The translations under genes and the position numbers were made by a program. Positions 5,701-49,940 of a DNA stretch of 64,000 nucleotides are shown here, one piece after another. The stretch comes from Pecten maximus (taxonomy: Eukaryota): positions 16,616,001 to 16,680,000 of the forward strand of contig NC_047023.1 in assembly GCF_902652985.1 (NCBI RefSeq), in the 5' to 3' direction. The notes beneath the pieces were generated by a model. That model ran no database searches. It was not told the DNA's origin and saw only the letters and a program-made list of their open reading frames with translations. Positions within the stretch are counted from its first letter, which is position 1, and the number at the start of each line of letters is the position of its first letter.

Positions 5701-6600
5701 AATTATAACCATTTTTCGACTACACAGCATTGACACCTGGCCAGAACTTACAGTATACAAATTGGTCTAGTTGATAACTCTTCGCTACCGATTAATTCCA
5801 ATAATTTGTGAACTACTTTGAGACAGCTTTGTGGCTGAGATATAGCGGTATATTAAACTCCATATTATTATCATTATCAACCGACTTTCCTAACCAAAGA
5901 ACCGGTCTGTTATCTGGTTTCAAGAATGATGTACTCTACCGGAATGGTTGAATTTATTTTTGGAAGATAAAATTGATATGAGTAAAAACAAATATTATTT
6001 TCAAACTGATGACAATATGATAGCCAATCAAAACATCGGTTAGAACGCGATTTGAAGTCTGGTTGTCATGTCAGGATACACACATATGCCCCACGTCACT
6101 TTTTGCTGAGATGGAATTTCGTAATACAGTTTTTGTTGTAATCTAATTCAAACAGGTGCTTTATTATCCTTTCGCAGTTTATGTCTGTAATTACAATCTC
6201 TATTTCGGTTTTGTGTTATTCAGAGAAACCGGAGATATATTTACACAAAAAGATCTGTAAAATACGGTTAAACCGTAATGTATATGTACCGTTCTACCTC
6301 TAAAAAACCTGAAGTTAAGAATTCGCATCTGTTTTCGTCGTCTCTGCAATGAACAGAAATTACGGAAACACTGCAATGTAAACGATATCATTTATGTGTA
6401 TCTGCATGTGTGATTCAATTACATTTAACAATCCCCTGTCCATGGTTGAAGGTACATGTATATCTAAAGACCGAGTACGTACAAACGCGTCAATAAAATC
6501 TGCGTTCGTAAAAATGAAACCATTCTCATGCTTAACCATGGAATCTGTACTCAACCGAAATTCCTTTAATTAAACTCGCTTGAATTCGGAAATAGAAGTT

Positions 6601-6717
6601 TAATGACTCATTTGTCTCTGATATAGCGGCTGATTTCTCTCTGATGAATGACTCATTTCGTTGTGATATACTGCTGATGTTTATCTGATTAATGACTCAA
6701 CTCGCTGTGACATACTG
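6601..6717. repeat. ~44-bp minisatellite, left part (interrupted by the Ngaro element)
   Basis: Unit ~aatgactcatttcgctgtgatatactgctgatttctctctgatt, period 44-45 bp. Confidence 0.85.
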
Positions 6718-6976
6718 ATTTTAATTTATTTAATTTAAGTTTATACAAGTGTGAAAAGTCCATCCTCTTATCGTCTAAACATGTTATTAAATAGGTTAGT
6801 ATATTGGAGGTAGATCGTAAGGGAAATATATGCTAATTAGGCCAAGAGGAAGTAACTGCTATAGTAGTCACGTGACCTAACTGACCAATGGTCAGCAGGA
6901 AGCATCCAGTCAGCCATCTTTGTGATGCGAGGATAAGTCAGACTCTAGAGATAGTTCATCTGCTTGATCGTCAACA
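6718..6976 (+). repeat. Ngaro split direct repeat A1 (259 bp)
   Basis: Identical by eye to 11438-11696. Confidence 0.97.
6867..6921 (+). promoter_or_regulatory. Putative Pol II promoter motifs in repeat A (duplicated at 11587-11641)
   Basis: Palindromic E-box GTCACGTGAC (6867-6876), CCAAT inside the palindrome ctgaccaatggtcag (6881-6895) and a YY1-like GCCATCTT, upstream of gag. Confidence 0.45.
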
Positions 6977-7148: not shown

Positions 7149-8447
7149 ATGATGAGACCGTCACGTAATAACTCGAGATCGGCGCCGTACGACCTTTCTA
7201 TGCCCGAGAATTGGACAGCAAAGAAATTACGAGAAGAGTTAACTTCACTCGGTGTGGTCGTTCCTTCCAATTACCGTAAGTCACGTTTATTGGCTATGTA
7301 CAAAGACAAAACCCAAGTCTCAAACGGGGTTCATTCAACCATGACATCTGACCCGACCCCTGGGCGGATGGAGTTTACGGATTCCCAGAATGCATCGCGC
7401 AATACACACCAAGATGGCGGAGTTACGGAGGTGCTTTCACAGCTGACTGATACGCTAGCGTCCATGCGACAAGATATGTCATCCATTAGACAGAGGATGT
7501 CGTTTCTGGAAGAACGGCAGGTCCCGGCGGCAGCAGCAGCAGGCGGTGTATCGCAAATAGCGACAGATCCTGGCTTAGTACCCGTTCAGGGACCTTCGGG
7601 CGGCGAGTCATTCACCCTGCAGTCGGCCATGGTAGCTTTCCAAACGTCTTCCGCCACATCAAGTACGTCGGGGAGGACCCAATTTGGATTTTCATCGGAA
7701 TCTTTACCATTCGTGGAGACTATCTCACCTGCCATAAGGAAACAAATAGTGGAAGGTAAGGATATCAACCTGGCGTGTTTGTTGATCCCATATTTCAACG
7801 GCCCAGCATCCGGCCATAACCCCGACAAACCCGACCCCAGGTTAATGAGGAGCTTATCCATCGGGGAATTTGTACAGGCATTCAGTATATTTAAACATGT
7901 GATGTGTCAGGCCTACCCCAATAGACGATATGAATTAGACATGTACGAGAGAGACGTGGTCGACATGGCGTCGCGTTACGGCGGCCAGGGTTTCTATGAG
8001 TACCATAAACAATTTAGTAGTAAGGCTGCAGCTCATTTACGCTTTCAAAACGTTATGGTTGACTGGTCCATAAGGAACAATACCATGTTTTGCAACATTT
8101 TCACAAATCTCCCCCCGTTGGCATGTTCACAGTGCGAGAGTACCAGTCACACTGCTGGTTTTTGCCCTCTTATGACTCTTAACACCTTGGATATGAAACA
8201 ACAGTCTACAAATCCCCAATATAAATCTTCTCCCAACGCAGACAGCTATGGAAGACACAAAGTGCTGTACAAAGGCAGTGAGATTTGTAATAACTTCAAT
8301 GACAGAGGTTGTCATCGCGCAAGATGTAATAATCTTCATGTGTGTTTGGTATGTAAAAAAGACCATTCTAAACGTGTGTGTCCCCAACACTCTTCTACAA
8401 AAAACGACTCGACCCCCTACCACAAACAACATCAGGGAAGACAGTAG
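7149..8447 (+). CDS. gag: Ngaro Gag-like protein (432 aa)
   Basis: First ORF of the element. It has a CX2CX4HX4C knuckle (CSQCESTSHTAGFC), a CCCH finger (CNNFNDRGCHRARCNNLH), a CX2CX3HX4C module and an N-terminal HeH/LEM-like segment. Confidence 0.9.
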   Translation: MMRPSRNNSRSAPYDLSMPENWTAKKLREELTSLGVVVPSNYRKSRLLAMYKDKTQVSNGVHSTMTSDPTPGRMEFTDSQNASRNTHQDGGVTEVLSQLTDTLASMRQDMSSIRQRMSFLEERQVPAAAAAGGVSQIATDPGLVPVQGPSGGESFTLQSAMVAFQTSSATSSTSGRTQFGFSSESLPFVETISPAIRKQIVEGKDINLACLLIPYFNGPASGHNPDKPDPRLMRSLSIGEFVQAFSIFKHVMCQAYPNRRYELDMYERDVVDMASRYGGQGFYEYHKQFSSKAAAHLRFQNVMVDWSIRNNTMFCNIFTNLPPLACSQCESTSHTAGFCPLMTLNTLDMKQQSTNPQYKSSPNADSYGRHKVLYKGSEICNNFNDRGCHRARCNNLHVCLVCKKDHSKRVCPQHSSTKNDSTPYHKQHQGRQ

Positions 8448-10075
8448 GGGGTATGCAGGTTGCTTCGACACCTATTGATATTCAGGAGCTTGAACGAGAT
8501 CTAGCATTACATCCAGACAGAGACTTTGTTTCTTACCTTTTAACTGGTTTAAGGTCGGGTTTCCACACCGGAATTACTTCTCTCCCTAGAAACTCCATTG
8601 AGTGTGCCAATTTGCTGTCTGCTAGGAATCAGTCTGATGTTGTGAAGGAACTGATAGGATCAGAGCTTGACAAAGGTTTTCTGATAGGACCCTACCATGA
8701 GTGCCCTTTCGTCACTTACAGGATAAATCCTATAGGCATAGCAGAGAGCAAATATTCTAGGAAAAAACGTTTAATCGTTGATTTGTCTTCTCCACACAAC
8801 AATGATGATAACCCGAGTTTAAACGATTTAATCAACAAAGATGAGTTTTCTCTGCAATATGTGACTGTCGATGACGCTATCAATATTATTAAGCGATTTG
8901 GTAAAGGCAGCTATTTATGTAAGACAGATATCTCCGACGCCTTTAAGCTAATACCCATTCACCCATCTCTGTGGCCTTTCCATGGTATCAAATGGGATGG
9001 TTTGTATTATTTCTATACTCGACTGGTGTTTGGAAGTAGATCGAGTCCCAAGATTTTTGACTGTTTATCACAAGCTGTGTGTTGGATAGCAGTTCACCGA
9101 TATAACATTCCGAATATCCTTCACCTGCTAGATGATTTCCTAACTGTGGATCCACCAAACTTTCATCAAGCCACCAGTACCATGGAGAAACTTATGTGTT
9201 TATTTGAATCGTTAGGTATTCCCATTGCTCAACATAAGACGGTGGGGCCGTCACTATGTTTAGAATATTTGGGAGTTACCCTGGATTGTGATCTCATGCA
9301 GGCAAGACTACCCGGAGAAAAGATTTTCAGAATTTGTGAGATATTAACTGAATTTAAAGACAAAAAATGTTGTACTAAACGTGAACTCCTCAGCTTACTT
9401 GGACATTTAAATTTTGCGAGTAGAGTTATTCCACATGGTCGTTCATTTGTGTCATATCTCATCAGCTTATCTACCAAAGTCAGAGAATTACATCATCACG
9501 TCAAGTTAACTGAGTCATGTAGACTGGACTTAAATATGTGGCTCCTGTTTCTCTCGCGGTGGAATGGGATTTCATTTTTTCTCAACGACAATGTTACACA
9601 GGCGGCTCACATGCACTTATTTACTGATGCGACAGATCGTGCTTTCGGAGGGATTTTTGGTAATAAGTGGTTTCAAGGGACGTTCCCCTTGGAGTTATAC
9701 GAGGGAAAGGATAAGATCTCCATGGCTTTCTGTGAATTGTTCCCCATTGTGATTGCATGTGTGTTATGGGGCAAAGAATGGTCAAGGAAAAGGATTTTAT
9801 TTCATTGTGACAATATGGCAACTGTGGACATTATAAATAAAGGACGTTCCAAAGTAGAGCTGATTATGAATTTAATGAGGAAGTTGACATTTTGTTCAAT
9901 GTCTAACAATTTCATTGTTCATGCAAGACATATTCCAGGCATAGATAATTCTATAGCGGATGCTATTTCTCGTTTCCAGATGGAGAAGTTTCGTCATCTC
10001 GCCCCACATGCAGATCCATTTCCAACACTGTGTCCTCCACTTTCCAGCCTGATGTTGTTCGGGAAAAGCAAATGA
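8378..10075 (+). CDS. pol: Reverse transcriptase / RNase H (first ATG at 8453; possibly expressed as a Gag fusion by -1 frameshift)
   Basis: DIRS-type RT motifs RLIVDLS, KTDISDAFK, LVFGSRSSP, HLLDDFL and YLGV; RNase H motifs LFTDA, ELFPI, HCDN and HIPGIDNSIADAISR. Confidence 0.96.
   Translation: MSPTLFYKKRLDPLPQTTSGKTVGGMQVASTPIDIQELERDLALHPDRDFVSYLLTGLRSGFHTGITSLPRNSIECANLLSARNQSDVVKELIGSELDKGFLIGPYHECPFVTYRINPIGIAESKYSRKKRLIVDLSSPHNNDDNPSLNDLINKDEFSLQYVTVDDAINIIKRFGKGSYLCKTDISDAFKLIPIHPSLWPFHGIKWDGLYYFYTRLVFGSRSSPKIFDCLSQAVCWIAVHRYNIPNILHLLDDFLTVDPPNFHQATSTMEKLMCLFESLGIPIAQHKTVGPSLCLEYLGVTLDCDLMQARLPGEKIFRICEILTEFKDKKCCTKRELLSLLGHLNFASRVIPHGRSFVSYLISLSTKVRELHHHVKLTESCRLDLNMWLLFLSRWNGISFFLNDNVTQAAHMHLFTDATDRAFGGIFGNKWFQGTFPLELYEGKDKISMAFCELFPIVIACVLWGKEWSRKRILFHCDNMATVDIINKGRSKVELIMNLMRKLTFCSMSNNFIVHARHIPGIDNSIADAISRFQMEKFRHLAPHADPFPTLCPPLSSLMLFGKSK
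8399..8452 (+). promoter_or_regulatory. Candidate programmed -1 ribosomal frameshift signal
   Basis: A_AAA_AAC at 8399-8405 in the gag frame, 6-nt spacer, perfect 9-bp stem accccctac (8412-8420) / gtagggggt (8444-8452). pol lies in the -1 frame and is open here. Confidence 0.7.
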
Positions 10076-11034
10076 ACAAACTGTGGGATTTAGCGGTCAG
10101 TCCTGGGACAGCTTCTACTTATTTAGTAGCCATTCAACATTTGTTACGTTTCATCACAATGTGTGGTATAGTGTGTGGTGCAGGACAATTACCACCAATA
10201 TCAGAAGATTTGTTGATGCATTTTGTATCACATTGTCATAATAGTTTGAACTTGACATTTGCTACAATCAAGCTGTATTTAGCGGGGATACGGTTTCATT
10301 ATTTGAAAGCTGGTTACAGTAATCCTTTCGCTAATACGGAAAGACTATCTTATATCTTACGAGGTATTAAAAAGAGTCAGCAAGGAAGTGTTTCAATTAA
10401 GAGATTGCCTATTACCTTTGACATTCTCGATCGCATGTGTAGATTATTACAGAGTGGTGTTTTCTCCAAAGATTTAGACTTATTATTATTATGTGCATGT
10501 CAGATGGCTTTCTTTGGGTTTTTAAGATGTGGTGAATTTACTGTTAAATGTAAGTCCAAGATCCAAGACGTCCTGTGTATTAAAGATATTGTGGTAGCAG
10601 ACGATCACAAAAGCTACTCATTGTTTTTGAAGGTCTCTAAAACTGATCCTTTTAGACATGGCGTACGGATTGCCATTTTTAGTAATACTGTGTTGTGTCC
10701 GGTCATCACCATGAAACATTTCTTACAAATGAGATTCAATCAGGGAGCTACAGTTTCGTGTCCTTTGTTTGCTGAAAGGAATGGGTGTATTCTCACCCGG
10801 GAACAATTTATTTCCTACCTGAGGCATATACTTGCAAGATTAGGTATTGATAGCTCAAGTTATAGTGGTCATTCATTTAGAATAGGTGCAGCAACTTCTG
10901 CAGCAGCAGCAGGAGTTGAGGACCATCTTATTCAAACCTTAGGACGATGGTCATCCAATTGTTTCACTCGTTATATCAGAACTTCGTCCACTGTTTTAGG
11001 TGATGCCCAGCTGCGCATGTGTGATAGGAAGTAG
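10072..11034 (+). CDS. Tyrosine recombinase (integrase) of the Ngaro element; frame open from 10030
   Basis: Catalytic set FLRCGE (R), SKTD (K), HSFRIG (HxxR), GRWSS (W) and RYIR (Y). ATG 10072 overlaps the pol stop as ATGA. Confidence 0.95.
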   Translation: MNKLWDLAVSPGTASTYLVAIQHLLRFITMCGIVCGAGQLPPISEDLLMHFVSHCHNSLNLTFATIKLYLAGIRFHYLKAGYSNPFANTERLSYILRGIKKSQQGSVSIKRLPITFDILDRMCRLLQSGVFSKDLDLLLLCACQMAFFGFLRCGEFTVKCKSKIQDVLCIKDIVVADDHKSYSLFLKVSKTDPFRHGVRIAIFSNTVLCPVITMKHFLQMRFNQGATVSCPLFAERNGCILTREQFISYLRHILARLGIDSSSYSGHSFRIGAATSAAAAGVEDHLIQTLGRWSSNCFTRYIRTSSTVLGDAQLRMCDRK

Positions 11035-11143
11035 TTATATATATATAGATGCTGGTTCCACATTTCTACCATAGGCTTTGTCTTACCTTAATTTCTTGGG
11101 GGCTCTCTTTTTTGGTAACTTGTGTCACCATTTCAATCGATTT

Positions 11144-11437
11144 GGCCTTTAAAATTCAATATTTGCTGAATTTTTATCCCCCAATTCATTTTTGAGGGTT
11201 AATTTAAGCTATCATGTTCTTTTTCATTATTTAACTTTTATGGATACACCTGCCGGGCTCTCCCCAGGTGCTACTTCTGACCTCCTGGGCTAACCTATAG
11301 TGCTGGTACTATAAACCCCAGGCAGAATGTTAGTTTTTACAGAGTAGCCCCTAAGAATGCCAAAATATAGTTAGTTAGTTTCGGTTCATTAATAAATCCA
11401 ATTAACCTTACTACTGGACTTTGTTGTTTTGTATAAA
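11144..11437 (+). repeat. Ngaro split direct repeat B1 (294 bp)
   Basis: Identical by eye to 12721-13014; contains two hairpins and AATAAA at 11391. Confidence 0.97.
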
Positions 11438-11696
11438 ATTTTAATTTATTTAATTTAAGTTTATACAAGTGTGAAAAGTCCATCCTCTTATCGTCTAAAC
11501 ATGTTATTAAATAGGTTAGTATATTGGAGGTAGATCGTAAGGGAAATATATGCTAATTAGGCCAAGAGGAAGTAACTGCTATAGTAGTCACGTGACCTAA
11601 CTGACCAATGGTCAGCAGGAAGCATCCAGTCAGCCATCTTTGTGATGCGAGGATAAGTCAGACTCTAGAGATAGTTCATCTGCTTGATCGTCAACA
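11438..11696 (+). repeat. Ngaro split direct repeat A2 (259 bp)
   Basis: Identical to A1 and abuts B1, reproducing the right-end/left-end junction. Confidence 0.97.
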
Positions 11697-11744
11697 CCCG
11701 CCAACCCTCCCAAGTTTTATTTATTATATAATTAAGTATATACA

Positions 11745-11828
11745 GGATGCCTGCCGGGCTCTCCCCAGGTCTTCCTACATTTAAAATTTTAGGCTAACAT
11801 CTACACCTGCCGGGCTCCCCCCGGGTGT

Positions 11829-11874
<46 letters not shown>

Positions 11875-12276
11875 TTTTTAGAATATGTTTATATTAGCTT
11901 ATACACCTGCCGGGCTCCCCCCGGGTGTTAATCTCTTAGAATGTGTTTATATTAGCTTATACACCTGCCGGGCTCCCCCCGGGTGTCAATCTCTGAGAAT
12001 GTGGTTATATTTGCTTACACACCTGCCGGGTTCCCCTCCGGGTGTCAATCTCTAAGAATGTGGTCATAATATTAGTTTATACATGTACACCTGCCGGGCT
12101 CCCCCCCGGGTGTCAATCTCCTAGATTGTGGTTATATTAGCTACACACCTGCCGGGCTCCCCCCGGGTGTCAATCTCTTAGATTGTGGTTATATTAGCTA
12201 CACACCTGCCGGGCTCCCCCCGGGTGTCAATCTCTGAGAGTTTGGTTATATTTGCTTACACACCTGCCAGGTGTCA
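11745..12276 (+). repeat. Tandem array (~57-58 bp period) of GC-rich hairpin motif acacctgccgggctccccccgggtgt inside the Ngaro element
   Basis: Copies start at about 11746, 11803, 11903, 11961, 12019, 12087, 12145 and 12202, with a collapsed copy at 12260. Confidence 0.95.
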
Positions 12277-12720
12277 TCTTTTTATTGACAGCATTTTGCA
12301 TCTCATATAATTGGTGTGAGCAGTGGTGTTAGTCAGTCACAGACAATGCAAGTTATTGTCATGTTTTATTTAATTGCAATGCTTAGTTTAATTTTAGGTG
12401 CGAAGTGATTCTATTTTTGTATCAGTACAGTTACAACTGTCATATGCTCATCGTTACATGATTGTATATGGTTATACATATAATCGATTGTTTTAAGACA
12501 AGGTTATGAAAATATGTACTTGCATGGCAGAGATTGCTTTAACAGTTTCTTTATGAATGAGTGTATGTATGTTTGTGTATTCCTGCTGGTTTTACGCATA
12601 CTCTATTACATTGTTTTTGTATATCATGTCACTTACCACCATTGGGCTACTCTGTAAGATGAATTTTATCATAAGTTCTTTTTGACTGCCTTATTGATAT
12701 TTACGGAATTCTTTAATTTA

Positions 12721-13014
12721 GGCCTTTAAAATTCAATATTTGCTGAATTTTTATCCCCCAATTCATTTTTGAGGGTTAATTTAAGCTATCATGTTCTTTT
12801 TCATTATTTAACTTTTATGGATACACCTGCCGGGCTCTCCCCAGGTGCTACTTCTGACCTCCTGGGCTAACCTATAGTGCTGGTACTATAAACCCCAGGC
12901 AGAATGTTAGTTTTTACAGAGTAGCCCCTAAGAATGCCAAAATATAGTTAGTTAGTTTCGGTTCATTAATAAATCCAATTAACCTTACTACTGGACTTTG
13001 TTGTTTTGTATAAA
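12721..13014 (+). repeat. Ngaro split direct repeat B2 (294 bp)
   Basis: Identical to B1; forms the right end of the element. Confidence 0.97.
12968..13010 (+). terminator. Putative polyadenylation signal of the Ngaro transcript
   Basis: AATAAA at 12968-12973 followed by GT-rich tggactttgttgttttgt; the same signal is present in B1. Confidence 0.55.
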
Positions 13015-13265
13015 CTGATGTTTATCTGATTAGTGACTCATTTCACACTGACATACTGCTGATTTCTCTCCGATTAGTGACTCATCCACACTGATAAACT
13101 GCTGATTTCCTTCGGATTAATGACTTATTTTGCTGTGATATACTGCTGATTTCTATCTGATAAGTGACTAATTTCACACTGATTTACTGCTGATTTCCTT
13201 CGGAATAGTGGCTCTTTTCGCTCTGATATATGGATTCATTTTTTCTGATAGAATGACAAATTTCG
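13015..13265. repeat. ~44-bp minisatellite, right part
   Basis: Continues the unit interrupted at 6717 (ctgatgtttatctgattagtgactca...). Confidence 0.88.
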
Positions 13266-16700: not shown

Positions 16701-17115
16701 AAATGCTTTTCAGGTTTGAATGACAAAGGTAAAGTTAAAAATAAATTGCAATTGGTTAATTTGTTTCAAGTATTTGTGTGTACTTAAAATTCACTGGTGT
16801 AATGTATTGAGGAGAAATTAGCAATATACATTTGTATTGCCCGAGAGTTTCTTTGCTGTAGGAAAACTGTCAAAACAGGAGGGAGCTAGATTGAGAGAAA
16901 CATGATTACTACTGTAGCACTCTTTGATATCAGAGGTGCATGCGATGATGCTGTATGTCTTATGTTAAGTGGACTGAGCTTTGAATAGTTACATACATTT
17001 AAGACAGGTGTGATACTGTAAATGATCTATTTTATGGTACTGAAACTTCAGCGCATAATCGAATTCAAACAAATCTCTGTCAAATGATTAAATGATGCAC
17101 TATTGTAACGTGTAT

Positions 17116-17707
17116 ATAGAGGTTACACAACGAGTGGTTGTTGGATATGGAATTTATTTCACACGAGTAAGTTATTTTTTAAAAGTTACAAAAGACACGA
17201 GCTTTAGCGAGTGTTTTTTGCAACTTTTAAAAATGATAACTGATTAACTGATTGTCTGAGAGTTGAATAACACAGGGTATTGTGGTAGAAAACACCTTCC
17301 AGCTGTTGATTAACAATCTGTTTATACCACACGTGGTATAAACTCTGTACGCATTTCGATTGGCTAACACGGTGAACTTTGACCCAAGCTGCAATTGTTA
17401 TTGACGTCATCAATAATCTAATGACGTCACATCACCGGGTCCCGGACGTCACCGGTACACTTTATTTGCATACGCGAAATTATACTTGGCCACGTTTCCC
17501 TTTGATTCAAGCCGATATTATTGTGATAGAAACAGGTCACACGACTCGTGATTGTTGGATATGGAATTTATTTCACACTCGTAAGTTATTTTTTAAAAGT
17601 TGCAAAAAACACTCGCTAAAGCTCGTGTCTTTTGTAACTTTTAAAAAATAACTTACTCGTGTGAAATAAATTCCATATCCAACAACCACTCGTTGTGTAA
17701 CCTCTAT
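17116..17707. mobile_element. Non-autonomous foldback element with 118-bp perfect TIRs containing palindromes
   Basis: 17116-17233 is the exact reverse complement of 17590-17707; the right end lies in a 160-bp palindrome at 17539-17698. Confidence 0.9.
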
Positions 17708-20497
17708 TTATACAGAAAATAAAATAATCGCAATCATAACTGTCGGCTCGAAAAGCGCAAAAATAAAATAACCGCTAAAATATATGTATTTAAGTGTATC
17801 ACATTTCATTGTGATATTTTTATCCTAGAAATATTTGCAATCGGACCCTCTCTTTTTAAATCATATGTTTACGTCATATATCATATTAATTTGACAACTC
17901 TGGAAATGTAATACATCAAAATAGCAATATGCGAATACAAAACTCCATTTGATTAATTCTATTCTATCAAATTTTATTCGATTTGAATGACAAGTTTGAA
18001 GAATGGGAAAGAAAATATTAATATATTCCTTATACGAAGTCTCAGTTTTTGGCATCTAACTAGGGAATTTTTATTTTGTTTTTACAATTTTATCATCATT
18101 AGAAGCTACCGTTTTATTATTTTACAAATCTGACAAAGAACAGAAAATATATGCATTTAATGCACTTATTGAATTGTCATCAATCGTGTTTTACTGTATC
18201 AAATATTCAAAAGCACGCGAGGGAAAACTAATTGAAAAATACGCATGTGTCATTCATATGTATGTTCTGATAATAAGTCAGCATGATCCGTCTTGATCAA
18301 TCTCGGACGGAGCAACTGTTTCGTAACATCAATTCGGATTTATAGTTTCTTATCATCAGAAACATTTAGAAAATTTCAACTTAGTGAAATGAATGTAATC
18401 GACGTCACGAAGCTAATGTGTTTTACAATTAAAAAAATATCAAAAGGGAAAGAAATTATCCTCAGATCAATTGTACTGTAAAACAATTACATACTTCTGC
18501 GTTTCTCACCCCTTTGGGTTTCAGTCGTCCGACTGAGAACGTAGCTGCTGACAATTGGAGATGCTTGTTACAAAGACTCCAGTTATCTTTATTGTAAGGA
18601 AGCCCCCCTGGGGTCTGACTACTATACAGGGATATTGTGTAACATGATAATTGTTATTTGTATGTGTGTTTATGATCTAGTAACCAAGGTTATATTTGAC
18701 TACTGTTATCGTTACCGGGGTTCTAACTATGAATTCTCCACACAAGCCGTATCTTAATACATTAGATTAGAGGTGAATGCTGGTGTCATTTTCTAGATTG
18801 GAAGAGGCCCACATGTGGCGAAGGAAACGATTACCATTGGAACATATGTTTTCGCTTTTTTTATCGCATGTTGTTTCCCCATTCACTTCGTTGTATCTTA
18901 TTCCTGTTTCCCGTTCTTAGTTTATTTCTGACATTGTCCATTTGTGTTGATGACGCTATGATAGATGTTTATTCTATTTTTTGGCTGACATATGTTTTTT
19001 GTACCGTGGTGAACTCTTAACCAGCTGTTGTCGTTTAAAAAATAAGAAAGCATAGAGATCGGTATTTTATGTTTATTTTCGGTAATAACCTTTCGTTAGC
19101 TTGATGGGCAGTCGCCAACTGAAATTGATTACACTGCAGATCATTGTTACGCTGCTATATTTAAGTTTGTTTTTAGATGGATTTTTAGATGTAGTTTTTA
19201 TGATTGTTTGTGTTTACTTCTGTTTATCTGCGACTCCGAGACTCCACTGTCACCCCCTTACAATACTGGATTTTGTACAGAGATAATTTTATTCCTTTTA
19301 GTAGAACTCACACGTTTTAATATATACAATATGAGGTTTTCATGTCACCATCCGATACATTAACGATAAATTTGCTAAGCTCTTACCATATCGTGAAGTT
19401 ATATAATAAGACATACTGATGCAATGCTACTACCTATCCTGTCCCCAACCAAATTGTCTTGTTTCATTATGTAGTAAGGATTGTGTTTATGAGAAACATA
19501 ATTAAAATGACTTTCATTAGGATATTCATGACAATGTTACGTGATATTGTTGCAGTTATCCCGGCTACTAAATACAACGTCCAATGTTATCACAATCCAT
19601 AGGCAAAGTGAAAGCCGTAAGTATGCATGACATCAGTATCTAGAGTAGGACAGAACTTATGATTCTCAGCATAGTCCAAGCAGAAAGACACAGTTGTGGG
19701 ATGATACAGAGAATGCCCGATTGATACCACTAAATTGAAAACAAATATGTAATCATCTTGTTTATAATTTTGTTATTTCAAAATAGACTTGATTTACCAG
19801 GTTTTCTCGTTCGCTTTCTGTCTCTTTTATCAGACTTATATTGGTATTATTACTCGTACAGGTTCTTGGGAGAGTATAGACCTGTTATGGATACATTCAA
19901 AATGTCGCAAGAGGCGACTTACGTGGAACTCCGCGTGGAATAATCTTTTTCGTCTGTGTCCTCTAATAAGGGACTATGAATAAATGAAAACTCCCCCCCC
20001 CCCTATACACACACATGAACACAATGCATCACTTGAGATATTTATCATTTCCATTTTTCCTACCTTCTCCTTTTATTTATTTCCTCTCTTATTAAGTTTT
20101 CGTGCGCTATTCTACTTTCTGTTTGTACCCCAGTATAGACACATGTCCTCTCGTGACCCTATCTCTTACGTTAAGCCCTGACCAGAAGAAGACTGATTGT
20201 CTACTCCCATTAAACACAGACTGATGTTTTTTTCATATTGATGGGAAGCTACAATCTTCTCACTCACTCAATCGACAACTACTTTCACTGGAATACTCGA
20301 GGGAAACACCTTTTAGCGATACATTAAATGGTCTCCTACACCATCTTGGAGCTGTAAGTGTCTTTGCATCTTGATATGTTGACCTTTTTGCACTCGTTTT
20401 TACCTTCTTTAAATTGCAATTTTTCCCTTTGCAGTAACAATGCCGGCAATTAATTGTCTGTCGTGCAACCTTTCGACATCACGGACAGTCAATACAG

Positions 20498-49337: not shown

Positions 49338-49940
49338 ACAGTTATCAAATGGGTATGAGGGCGATGGTAATTTTGTCAGCCCCGAGGCAACAACTGTTGC
49401 ACGAGGGCTTTAGCCCTCGTGCAACAGTTGTTGCCTCGGGGCTGACAAAATTACTATTGCCCGAATTACCCCATTTGATAACTGTTTTATTATACCTTTA
49501 CGTTTTTTCTTGGCATAAAACTCACCATTAGCCTTTCGGATATCTACGTAAAATGTTCTAAGAAATAGGTTAAAATTCGTTGTCGGTATCTCGTATAATG
49601 CTTTTATAGTGTTTTTGCTATCTATGTCCGTTAATAATGACTCAATCTCTACGTCTGTGGCGTTTTGAAAACGCGTGTATTGATCCATGTTTGACAGTTT
49701 CGTGAGAGAAAACAAAATGTTAGGCTACTGTCTGCAACAACAAACAATCTGTGTCAATTAAGCGCTTGCATGTCGTTGTGTCTTTCAAACGTTCTGACGA
49801 CGTTACAGCAGGGGTGTGACAGTTCGCCGTGTGACAGTTTGCCGTGTGACAGTTTTTTTCGAACTGTCACATGGTGTGATAGTCCTAGAAACACATGCGT
49901 AATCCTCTCGAGGCTGATAGTCAAATTATCACATTACTTT
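49338..49940 (-). mobile_element. Internally deleted Crypton-like (tyrosine recombinase DNA transposon) remnant with terminal palindrome
   Basis: Peptide RFQNATDVEIESLLTDIDSKNTIKA...NLFLRTFYVDIRKANGEFYAK matches the N-terminal region of Crypton/DUF3504-associated proteins. Palindrome at 49338-49485 has 43-bp perfect arms. Right boundary approximate. Confidence 0.7.

Follow-up and report, generated by a model that had tools for sequence, protein, structure and literature searches.

A stretch of 64,000 nucleotides from the scallop Pecten maximus (contig NC_047023.1, positions 16,616,001 to 16,680,000 of the forward strand; hereafter the window, in whose own numbering the element's features are given) contains a young retrotransposon of the little-studied Ngaro type, a class assigned from its anatomy and not from placement beside named Ngaro references. 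Its gag-like open reading frame (ORF) and its reverse transcriptase/ribonuclease H (RT/RNase H, or RT/RH) ORF overlap in a gag/pol junction that includes 8399-8465. Judging from the sequences of this element and its relatives, ribosomes very probably cross the junction by −1 frameshifting, which would yield a Gag-RT/RH protein of about 975 residues. Seventeen of the 20 related families with RT in the −1 frame carry a canonical slippery heptamer in gag phase at one place, the zinc-finger end of Gag, where 1.2 of 20 would be expected.

All features of the element described here lie on the + strand. The gag-like ORF1 (7149..8447, 432 aa, TAG at 8445-8447) ends in C-terminal Cys/His zinc-finger motifs and was called gag from these motifs and its position; its N-terminus gave a weak HeH/LEM match (PF12949, E 0.043) below the cut-off. 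Near its end, AAAAAAC at 8399..8405 is read by the gag frame as ACA AAA AAC (T-K-N), so that A_AAA_AAC has the form X_XXY_YYZ in the zero frame, in the phase that the original prediction had assigned to it. A 6-nt spacer, GACTCG (8406..8411), separates the heptamer from a 9-bp stem, the 5′ arm of which (8412..8420, ACCCCCTAC) is the exact reverse complement of the 3′ arm (8444..8452, GTAGGGGGT); the 3′ arm contains the gag UAG, and a 23-nt loop (8421..8443) lies between the arms, so that this part of the prediction was also accurate. The −1 frame is indeed the RT frame, but it opens at 8372, six bases before the 8378 first given, following a TAA at 8369-8371, and stays open to 10075. Each of the nine pairs had a probability of at least 0.93 in five folding windows, and no shuffle of 200 had a helix as strong starting 4-10 nt past the heptamer. 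The whole fold gave z = −2.3 (7 of 200 shuffles as good), with longer windows at −1.8 and −0.6. Elsewhere in gag, in-phase canonical heptamers occur at 53 of 18,810 codons, or about 7% per 24-codon overlap. The overlap is not an assembly error, because five near-identical copies in the genome G000 (99-100% RT identity) share it, and contigs from six of eight sequencing runs (X1, X3, X5, X6, X7 and X9) span 8399-8465 with no indel or joint among those listed; seven of the eight runs are RNA by guess only.

According to the proposed mechanism, most ribosomes would stop at 8447 and release the 432-residue Gag, while a minority would slip back one base at A_AAA_AAC, through tandem slippage of tRNA-Lys and tRNA-Asn presumably stimulated by the hairpin, and continue to a 975-residue Gag-RT/RH (419 Gag codons plus 556 in −1). 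The resulting fixed ratio of Gag to Gag-Pol could bring RT into a Gag particle, and a spliced RNA would supply Gag(1-202) joined to the tyrosine recombinase (YR). The Gag-RT/RH product would probably remain uncut, no element-encoded protease being predicted: neither a protease domain family nor an aspartic-protease motif was found in the three searched translations. The heptamers of the relatives lend support to the protease-free Gag-RT/RNase H fusion that had been suggested from the window alone.

These relatives were gathered as 147 loci, 70 from G000 (of 133 RT matches, from the 131 of 1029 candidates that were scored) and 77 from metagenome contigs. The junction was held by 119 of the 147 loci, 117 of them with enough RT, and clustering at 88% RT identity gave 73 clusters. 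L011 was merged by hand with L007, and L081 with L075 (shared junction, broken RT), L075 moving to the −1 class via L081; with the decayed cluster L141 dropped, 70 families remain. RT lies in −1 in 20 families, in frame across a stop in 34, fused to gag in 2, and in +1 in 14 distant ones (33-40% identity). The 17 heptamer families, ten from G000 and seven from metagenome contigs, have 55-78% RT identity to the window. A_AAA_AAC occurs in 11 of them, 8-23 nt past the last zinc-finger Cys, and C_CCU_UUA in six, starting in the codon of that Cys. The −1 frame is free of stops from the heptamer to the conserved TP motif of RT in 17 of 17, most having no AUG there. The recurrence of the heptamer and the open frame beyond it, on which the original prediction had staked its case, are therefore both borne out. 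A scan of IMG/VR returned 102 pattern matches, with no relative among them.

The codons at these sites point to the heptamers themselves as the conserved feature. All 11 families of the first kind have xxA AAA AAC although the first residue varies among T, S and A, and all six of the second kind have TGC CCT TTA, with codon frequencies of 0.45, 0.29 and 0.19. Within the last 25 gag codons of the in-frame families, neither heptamer was found in 34 of 34, one having A_AAA_AAT; the 17 listed instances of K-N or C-P-L near in-frame Gag ends likewise include neither heptamer and four A_AAA_AAT. On mammalian ribosomes, few heptamers are as prone to shifting as A_AAA_AAC (PMC5009743, available sections). 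The 15 of the 17 families included in the tree form one clade (support 88/82 in the second tree, which left out L075; SH-aLRT, the Shimodaira–Hasegawa-like approximate likelihood ratio test, 99 in the other). Within it, the C_CCT_TTA families (95/86) nest among A_AAA_AAC families (95/90, 96/87), and therefore the site changed in sequence and place and stayed canonical; the frameshift lineage has, as its sequences are read here, swapped its putative slippery site once, from A_AAA_AAC to C_CCU_UUA at a new position. Altered heptamers are seen in the decayed copies L013, L154 and L169. In L082, L083 and L112, a 94-nt −1 overlap has no canonical heptamer, and an A-rich run stands at the gag end directly before the UAA.

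Upstream of the TP motif, the open RT frame is without an AUG in ten of the 17 heptamer families. Among those ten, an AUG first appears at +10, +29, +44, +104, +150, +150, +161 and +237 codons, two copies breaking first; five of the ten thus have it 104-237 codons inside RT, and in the intact multi-copy families L007 and L018 it lies at +237 and +150. Across 55 homologues, RT hardly varies at residues 13-57, and +237 is beyond the catalytic DD, which the window has at about +221. Given a first AUG so late and an RT N-terminus so little variable, initiation at an AUG cannot give the whole RT in these families.

Sister lineages have other junctions. All 34 in-frame families stop at UGA-C, the codon after UGA being CTA in 11, CAA in 8, CTT in 6, CTG in 4 and others in 5, and UGA-C is the stop in one of the 20 −1 families; CAA directly precedes UGA in ten of the 34, and 28 of the 34 have no AUG before TP. 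These families (L021-L050 from G000 and many of L073-L134, often with CAA-UGA-CUA) are candidates for stop-codon readthrough. UGA-C is counted as leaky, and type II readthrough has UGA-CUA as its motif (PMC3542737, in the parts available). With type II readthrough (UGA-CUA/CGG; alphaviruses, tobraviruses) and with the gag-UGA-pol of Tca2 these families have a UGA junction in common, gag-UGA-C-pol in their case, 11 having UGA-CUA; they differ in that no 3′ structure was detected after UGA-C (mean z +0.2 and +0.3), and this junction is not that of the window element. In L105, L106 and L108, gag and RT form one ORF of 1044-1198 codons, as they also do in the decayed L110 and L128, so that an ordinary gene for the uncut fusion does exist. 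Sister lineages thus likely reach the same Gag-RT/RH fusion via UGA-C readthrough or an outright fused ORF, and three junction states, with frameshifting as a predicted one, would converge on one uncut product. Four changes on the tree are required to account for the five junction states; when the tree is rooted on the +1 group, the putative frameshift clade falls among the candidate readthrough families, the branches that fix this direction being not well supported.

The 14 distant families from G000 (L051-L070; L187, 2659-4503; L188, 2224-4101 on the − strand) have RT in +1; their overlaps measure some 250 nt at the least, and most of these families have AUGs in the frame of RT, which suggests another route of expression (an internal start or a +1 shift). 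L188 also contains a 202-codon ORF upstream of gag (6306-6914, − strand), the motifs of which we take to resemble those of an SGNH hydrolase. Amphibian Ngaro elements carry an SGNH hydrolase ORF after YR.

Several observations weigh against frameshifting at the window's junction or against parts of that proposal. The 17 heptamer families are one clade and therefore do not represent 17 independent events. In the −1 class, the decayed L142 has a heptamer of another kind elsewhere, and the L083 group and L135 have no canonical one. The window family does have an AUG in the RT frame (8453..8455), five bases past the gag stop. A UGA junction resembling that of the sister families, the gag-UGA-pol junction of Tca2, gave no readthrough in a yeast reporter and held a minor promoter (PMC2194720, as far as its available text goes). 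Most of the difficulty lies with the 3′ structure. Helices of 6-9 bp, 4-9 nt past the heptamer and beating 200 of 200 shuffles, were found in L001, L007, L010 and L122, with differing sequences and loops; in the first three, the gag stop is either enclosed by the helix or part of it. The remaining 13 of 17 families, among them all six with C_CCT_TTA and L006, a rather close relative, have no significant spaced hairpin, and folding z averages −0.2 across the 17, as in control windows. Between L001 and L007, the stem is shifted in register by one base within C/G runs, which is not clean covariation, and the decayed near copies L014 and L154 each have one stem mismatch. This part of the original prediction is weaker than proposed, a strong spaced hairpin being present in just four of 17 families, and neither folding nor the spaced-helix scan found a general 3′ hairpin. 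The stimulator is the weak part of the case because most families are without a local hairpin; the C_CCU_UUA and L006 families may have a stimulator of unrecognised kind.

A pseudoknot had also been suggested, between CAAC in the loop (8427-8430) and GTTG downstream (8459-8462). Both tetramers are present, but their pairing is 4 bp with a second loop of 13 nt, chance alone would give more than one match of that size between the 23-nt loop and the next 25 nt, and the geometry is atypical. The pairing has a wobble in L154, is broken or moved in L014 and is absent in L007, leaving this suggestion unsupported. The best hit of a compact pseudoknot scan was no better than shuffles (p 0.12), the scan covering middle loops of ≤2 nt and so leaving the CAAC/GTTG geometry unscored.

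The AUG at 8453 raises the possibility that RT/RNase H is a separate 540-residue protein made by re-initiation after the gag stop, an alternative that the original prediction had named. The AUG is in frame, stands five codons before TP and has G at −3; an AUG upstream of TP is found in 7 of the 17 frameshift families and 6 of the 34 in-frame ones, and victoriviruses express pol by stop-restart (PMC3542737, in part). Nevertheless, such an AUG is missing from 10 of 17 and 28 of 34 families, L007 and L018 included, its position varies from −4 to −40 codons, no UGGGA motif occurs within 100 nt before the gag stop, and the heptamers and UGA-C would be left unexplained. Re-initiation is unlikely as a general route because AUG 8453 is not conserved, and we consider it improbable as the source of RT in the window element, where it could make a minor contribution within the family. 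A little less likely still, RT could have its own mRNA, from an internal promoter near the junction as in Tca2 or by splicing of the 7755 donor to an acceptor that immediately precedes RT. That donor, in gag, appears to be used, the AGs ending at 8435 and 8444 are compatible with its phase, and Tca2 has its minor junction promoter (PMC2194720, partial text); yet no joint into the overlap occurs in the eight runs, whose contigs show presence and not absence, no pyrimidine tract precedes either AG, an internal promoter would still need the AUG that most families lack, and neither version gives a reason for keeping X_XXY_YYZ or UGA-C.

The heptamer might instead be a by-product of Gag sequence (x-K-N, C-P-L) inherited from one ancestor, RT being made by some other unrecognised route. 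The single clade, the A-rich Gag tails and a downstream structure that is not generally conserved would all suit such an origin, but synonymous positions stay fixed within a tail that otherwise varies in length and sequence, one canonical heptamer was replaced by another at a different position, and K-N or C-P-L in the in-frame families is encoded by other codons, so that we rate it as very unlikely. Hardly credible is slippage of RNA polymerase on the A6 run, inserting a base and fusing the frames in the mRNA: the six-A run is there, and in one genomic copy of the family L017 a longer A run puts gag and RT into one frame, but no contig has an insertion at 8399-8405 (contigs drop rare variants), and C_CCT_TTA has no long run. 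Six As are also short for polymerase slippage.

Besides the frameshift proposed for Gag-RT/RH, there is likely a spliced mRNA of its own for the recombinase, joining 7755 to 9980 and encoding a Gag(1-202)-YR fusion of 553 residues. Most families have no AUG for YR. The donor AAG/GTAAGG (7753..7761) ends its exon at 7755 in phase 1, and the acceptor region (9960..9979), a pyrimidine tract with CAG, is followed by an exon from 9980. At the place of the donor, the Gly of the gag G-K-D motif is GGT in 31 of 41 families (background 324 of 1123), GGC in 5 and GGA/GGG in 5; at that of the acceptor, 21 of the 21 elements with a Gln after the RT S-R-x motif encode it by CAG (in the background, CAG and CAA number 188 and 201), and in the remaining 9 of 30 a pyrimidine-CAG follows one to three codons later. 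From this codon bias a phase-1 intron, 7756-9979, was predicted. A joint in a contig of run X6 (depth 22) skips 2224 bases, with GT..AG ends, exactly at the predicted sites, and no intron-less genomic copy that could be its source was found among 16 matches in G000. The spliced frame has 553 codons; the zinc fingers of Gag and the whole of RT/RH would go with the intron. Points against the splice are that the joint comes from one contig in one of eight runs with 25 letters on its short side, and that 5 of 41 families have no GT/GC donor there. Other contig joints (7763-9743, 8102-9237, 8109-9792 and 7510-7578) have no GT..AG ends, and a second donor candidate at 7276/7277 is not conserved. Contig depth cannot rank the parts of the element, and differences in depth between YR and RT were not used.

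A frameshift for the YR ORF was proposed by Poulter and Butler (2015), as quoted in the available part of PMC13003380; in the elements analysed here, by contrast, the RT/YR overlap has splice sites and no conserved heptamer, in-phase heptamers occurring in 4 of 30 elements and all being different. Frameshifting or AUGA stop-restart was rejected as the general route to YR, an AUG being present there in 4 of 30 intact-RT elements and a heptamer in 4 of 30. The window itself has an AUGA at 10072-10075, a YR-frame AUG overlapping the RT stop. Taking the junctions and the splice together, we think it fairly likely that one animal Ngaro lineage runs a retrovirus-like programme from a single transcript with no protease, making an uncut Gag-RT/RH through UGA-C readthrough, A_AAA_AAC, C_CCU_UUA and outright fusion in exchange for one another, and a Gag-recombinase through a conserved splice.

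The anatomy of the element agrees with that of Ngaro. ORF1 is followed by the RT/RNase H ORF (8372..10075; RVT_1 E 1e-8), which ends about 35 codons past its last RNase H motif, and by the YR ORF (9949..11034), in −1 relative to RT (Phage_integrase E 1e-5, SAM_4 E 0.0045), with R / H-x-x-R / Y motifs and 351 codons counted from the splice acceptor. The D-E-D-D motifs of RNase H were recognised from the sequence; for that region the domain library gave no match and comparison with the PDB nothing significant. The order gag, RT/RNase H, YR on one strand is that of Ngaro, and so is the arrangement of the split direct repeats, A1-ORFs-B1A2-B2 with the internal copies after YR: A1 (6718..6976, 259 nt) is 100% identical to A2 (11438..11696), which directly adjoins B1 (11141..11437, 297 nt), itself 100% identical to B2 (12718..13014), the element's 3′ end. 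No methylase family was found at E 0.1 in the element's ORFs, which separates the element from DIRS1-like and PAT elements; a DIRS1-like identity was rejected, there being no methylase and no inverted repeat at the element ends among those listed. Published Ngaro elements have the same repeats and ORF order, with YR overlapping RT/RH in −1 and no methyltransferase, protease or DDE integrase (PMC8547959, PMC9210276, PMC3783388 and PMC4157794, available parts), and they differ from the window element in that about 1 kb separates its A2 from B2 and no hydrolase ORF was seen after its YR. Structure alone may mislead on class, one PAT lineage having lost its methyltransferase (PMC4157794, partial text). 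The named homologues come from scallops and mussels.

The non-coding stretch between A2 and B2 (11697..12717) holds a poly(A) run and about eight repeats of about 58 nt with a GC-rich self-complementary core, a core also found once in each B repeat; the stretch is present in run contigs. The element sits within a degenerate tandem repeat of about 44 nt that continues on both sides (6629-6717, 13014-13233). Elsewhere in the window, a pair of 124-nt inverted repeats (98%) at 17110-17713 and a 51-bp near-perfect palindrome at 49359-49462 are probably small DNA transposons.

Mouse mammary tumor virus and human T-lymphotropic virus use A_AAA_AAC at gag-pro. Programmed −1 ribosomal frameshifting combines X_XXY_YYZ in the upstream frame with a 5-9 nt spacer and a 3′ structure (PMC3542737, excerpt), and many animal long terminal repeat (LTR) elements have pol in −1 with X_XXY_YYZ heptamers (PMC5009743, excerpt). 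The window cassette shares heptamer and spacer, and by prediction a 3′ structure, with the −1 sites of beta- and deltaretroviruses and LTR elements. Unlike these, the window element is not an LTR element and would enter RT directly without a protease, and its predicted 3′ structure is a large-loop hairpin present in some families only. As with totivirus Gag-Pol, its product would stay uncut. The original prediction knew of no characterised gag/RT frameshift in Ngaro, and none was found here: the available portions of PMC3783388, PMC8547959, PMC3266345, PMC6681497, PMC9210276, PMC5009743, PMC7192593, PMC4157794 and bioRxiv 2021.04.08.439009 contain no description of gag/RT frameshifting, readthrough or Gag-YR splicing in YR retrotransposons, early Ngaro papers or Repbase entries being places where junctions could be mentioned. 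The accessible text of the Ngaro papers found gives no mechanism for gag-to-RT expression, and that of PMC5009743 does not mention DIRS.

For the expression of overlapping ORFs in YR retrotransposons, the only proposal found in print is a frameshift at the RT/YR overlap, and the present analysis adds precise positions at which gag-to-RT recoding and the making of the recombinase mRNA can be tested. Annotations of such elements in which a gene caller begins RT at an internal AUG are likely wrong. The gain is mainly for specialists in transposons and recoding: a textbook mechanism is predicted, with good support, in a group for which no description of it was found, together with recoding modes exchanged among close relatives. 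The families provide a natural series within one genome, in which readthrough and frameshifting would replace each other among close relatives. The stoichiometry of Gag to Gag-Pol can be argued to be selected even without a protease, which would point to a Gag particle.

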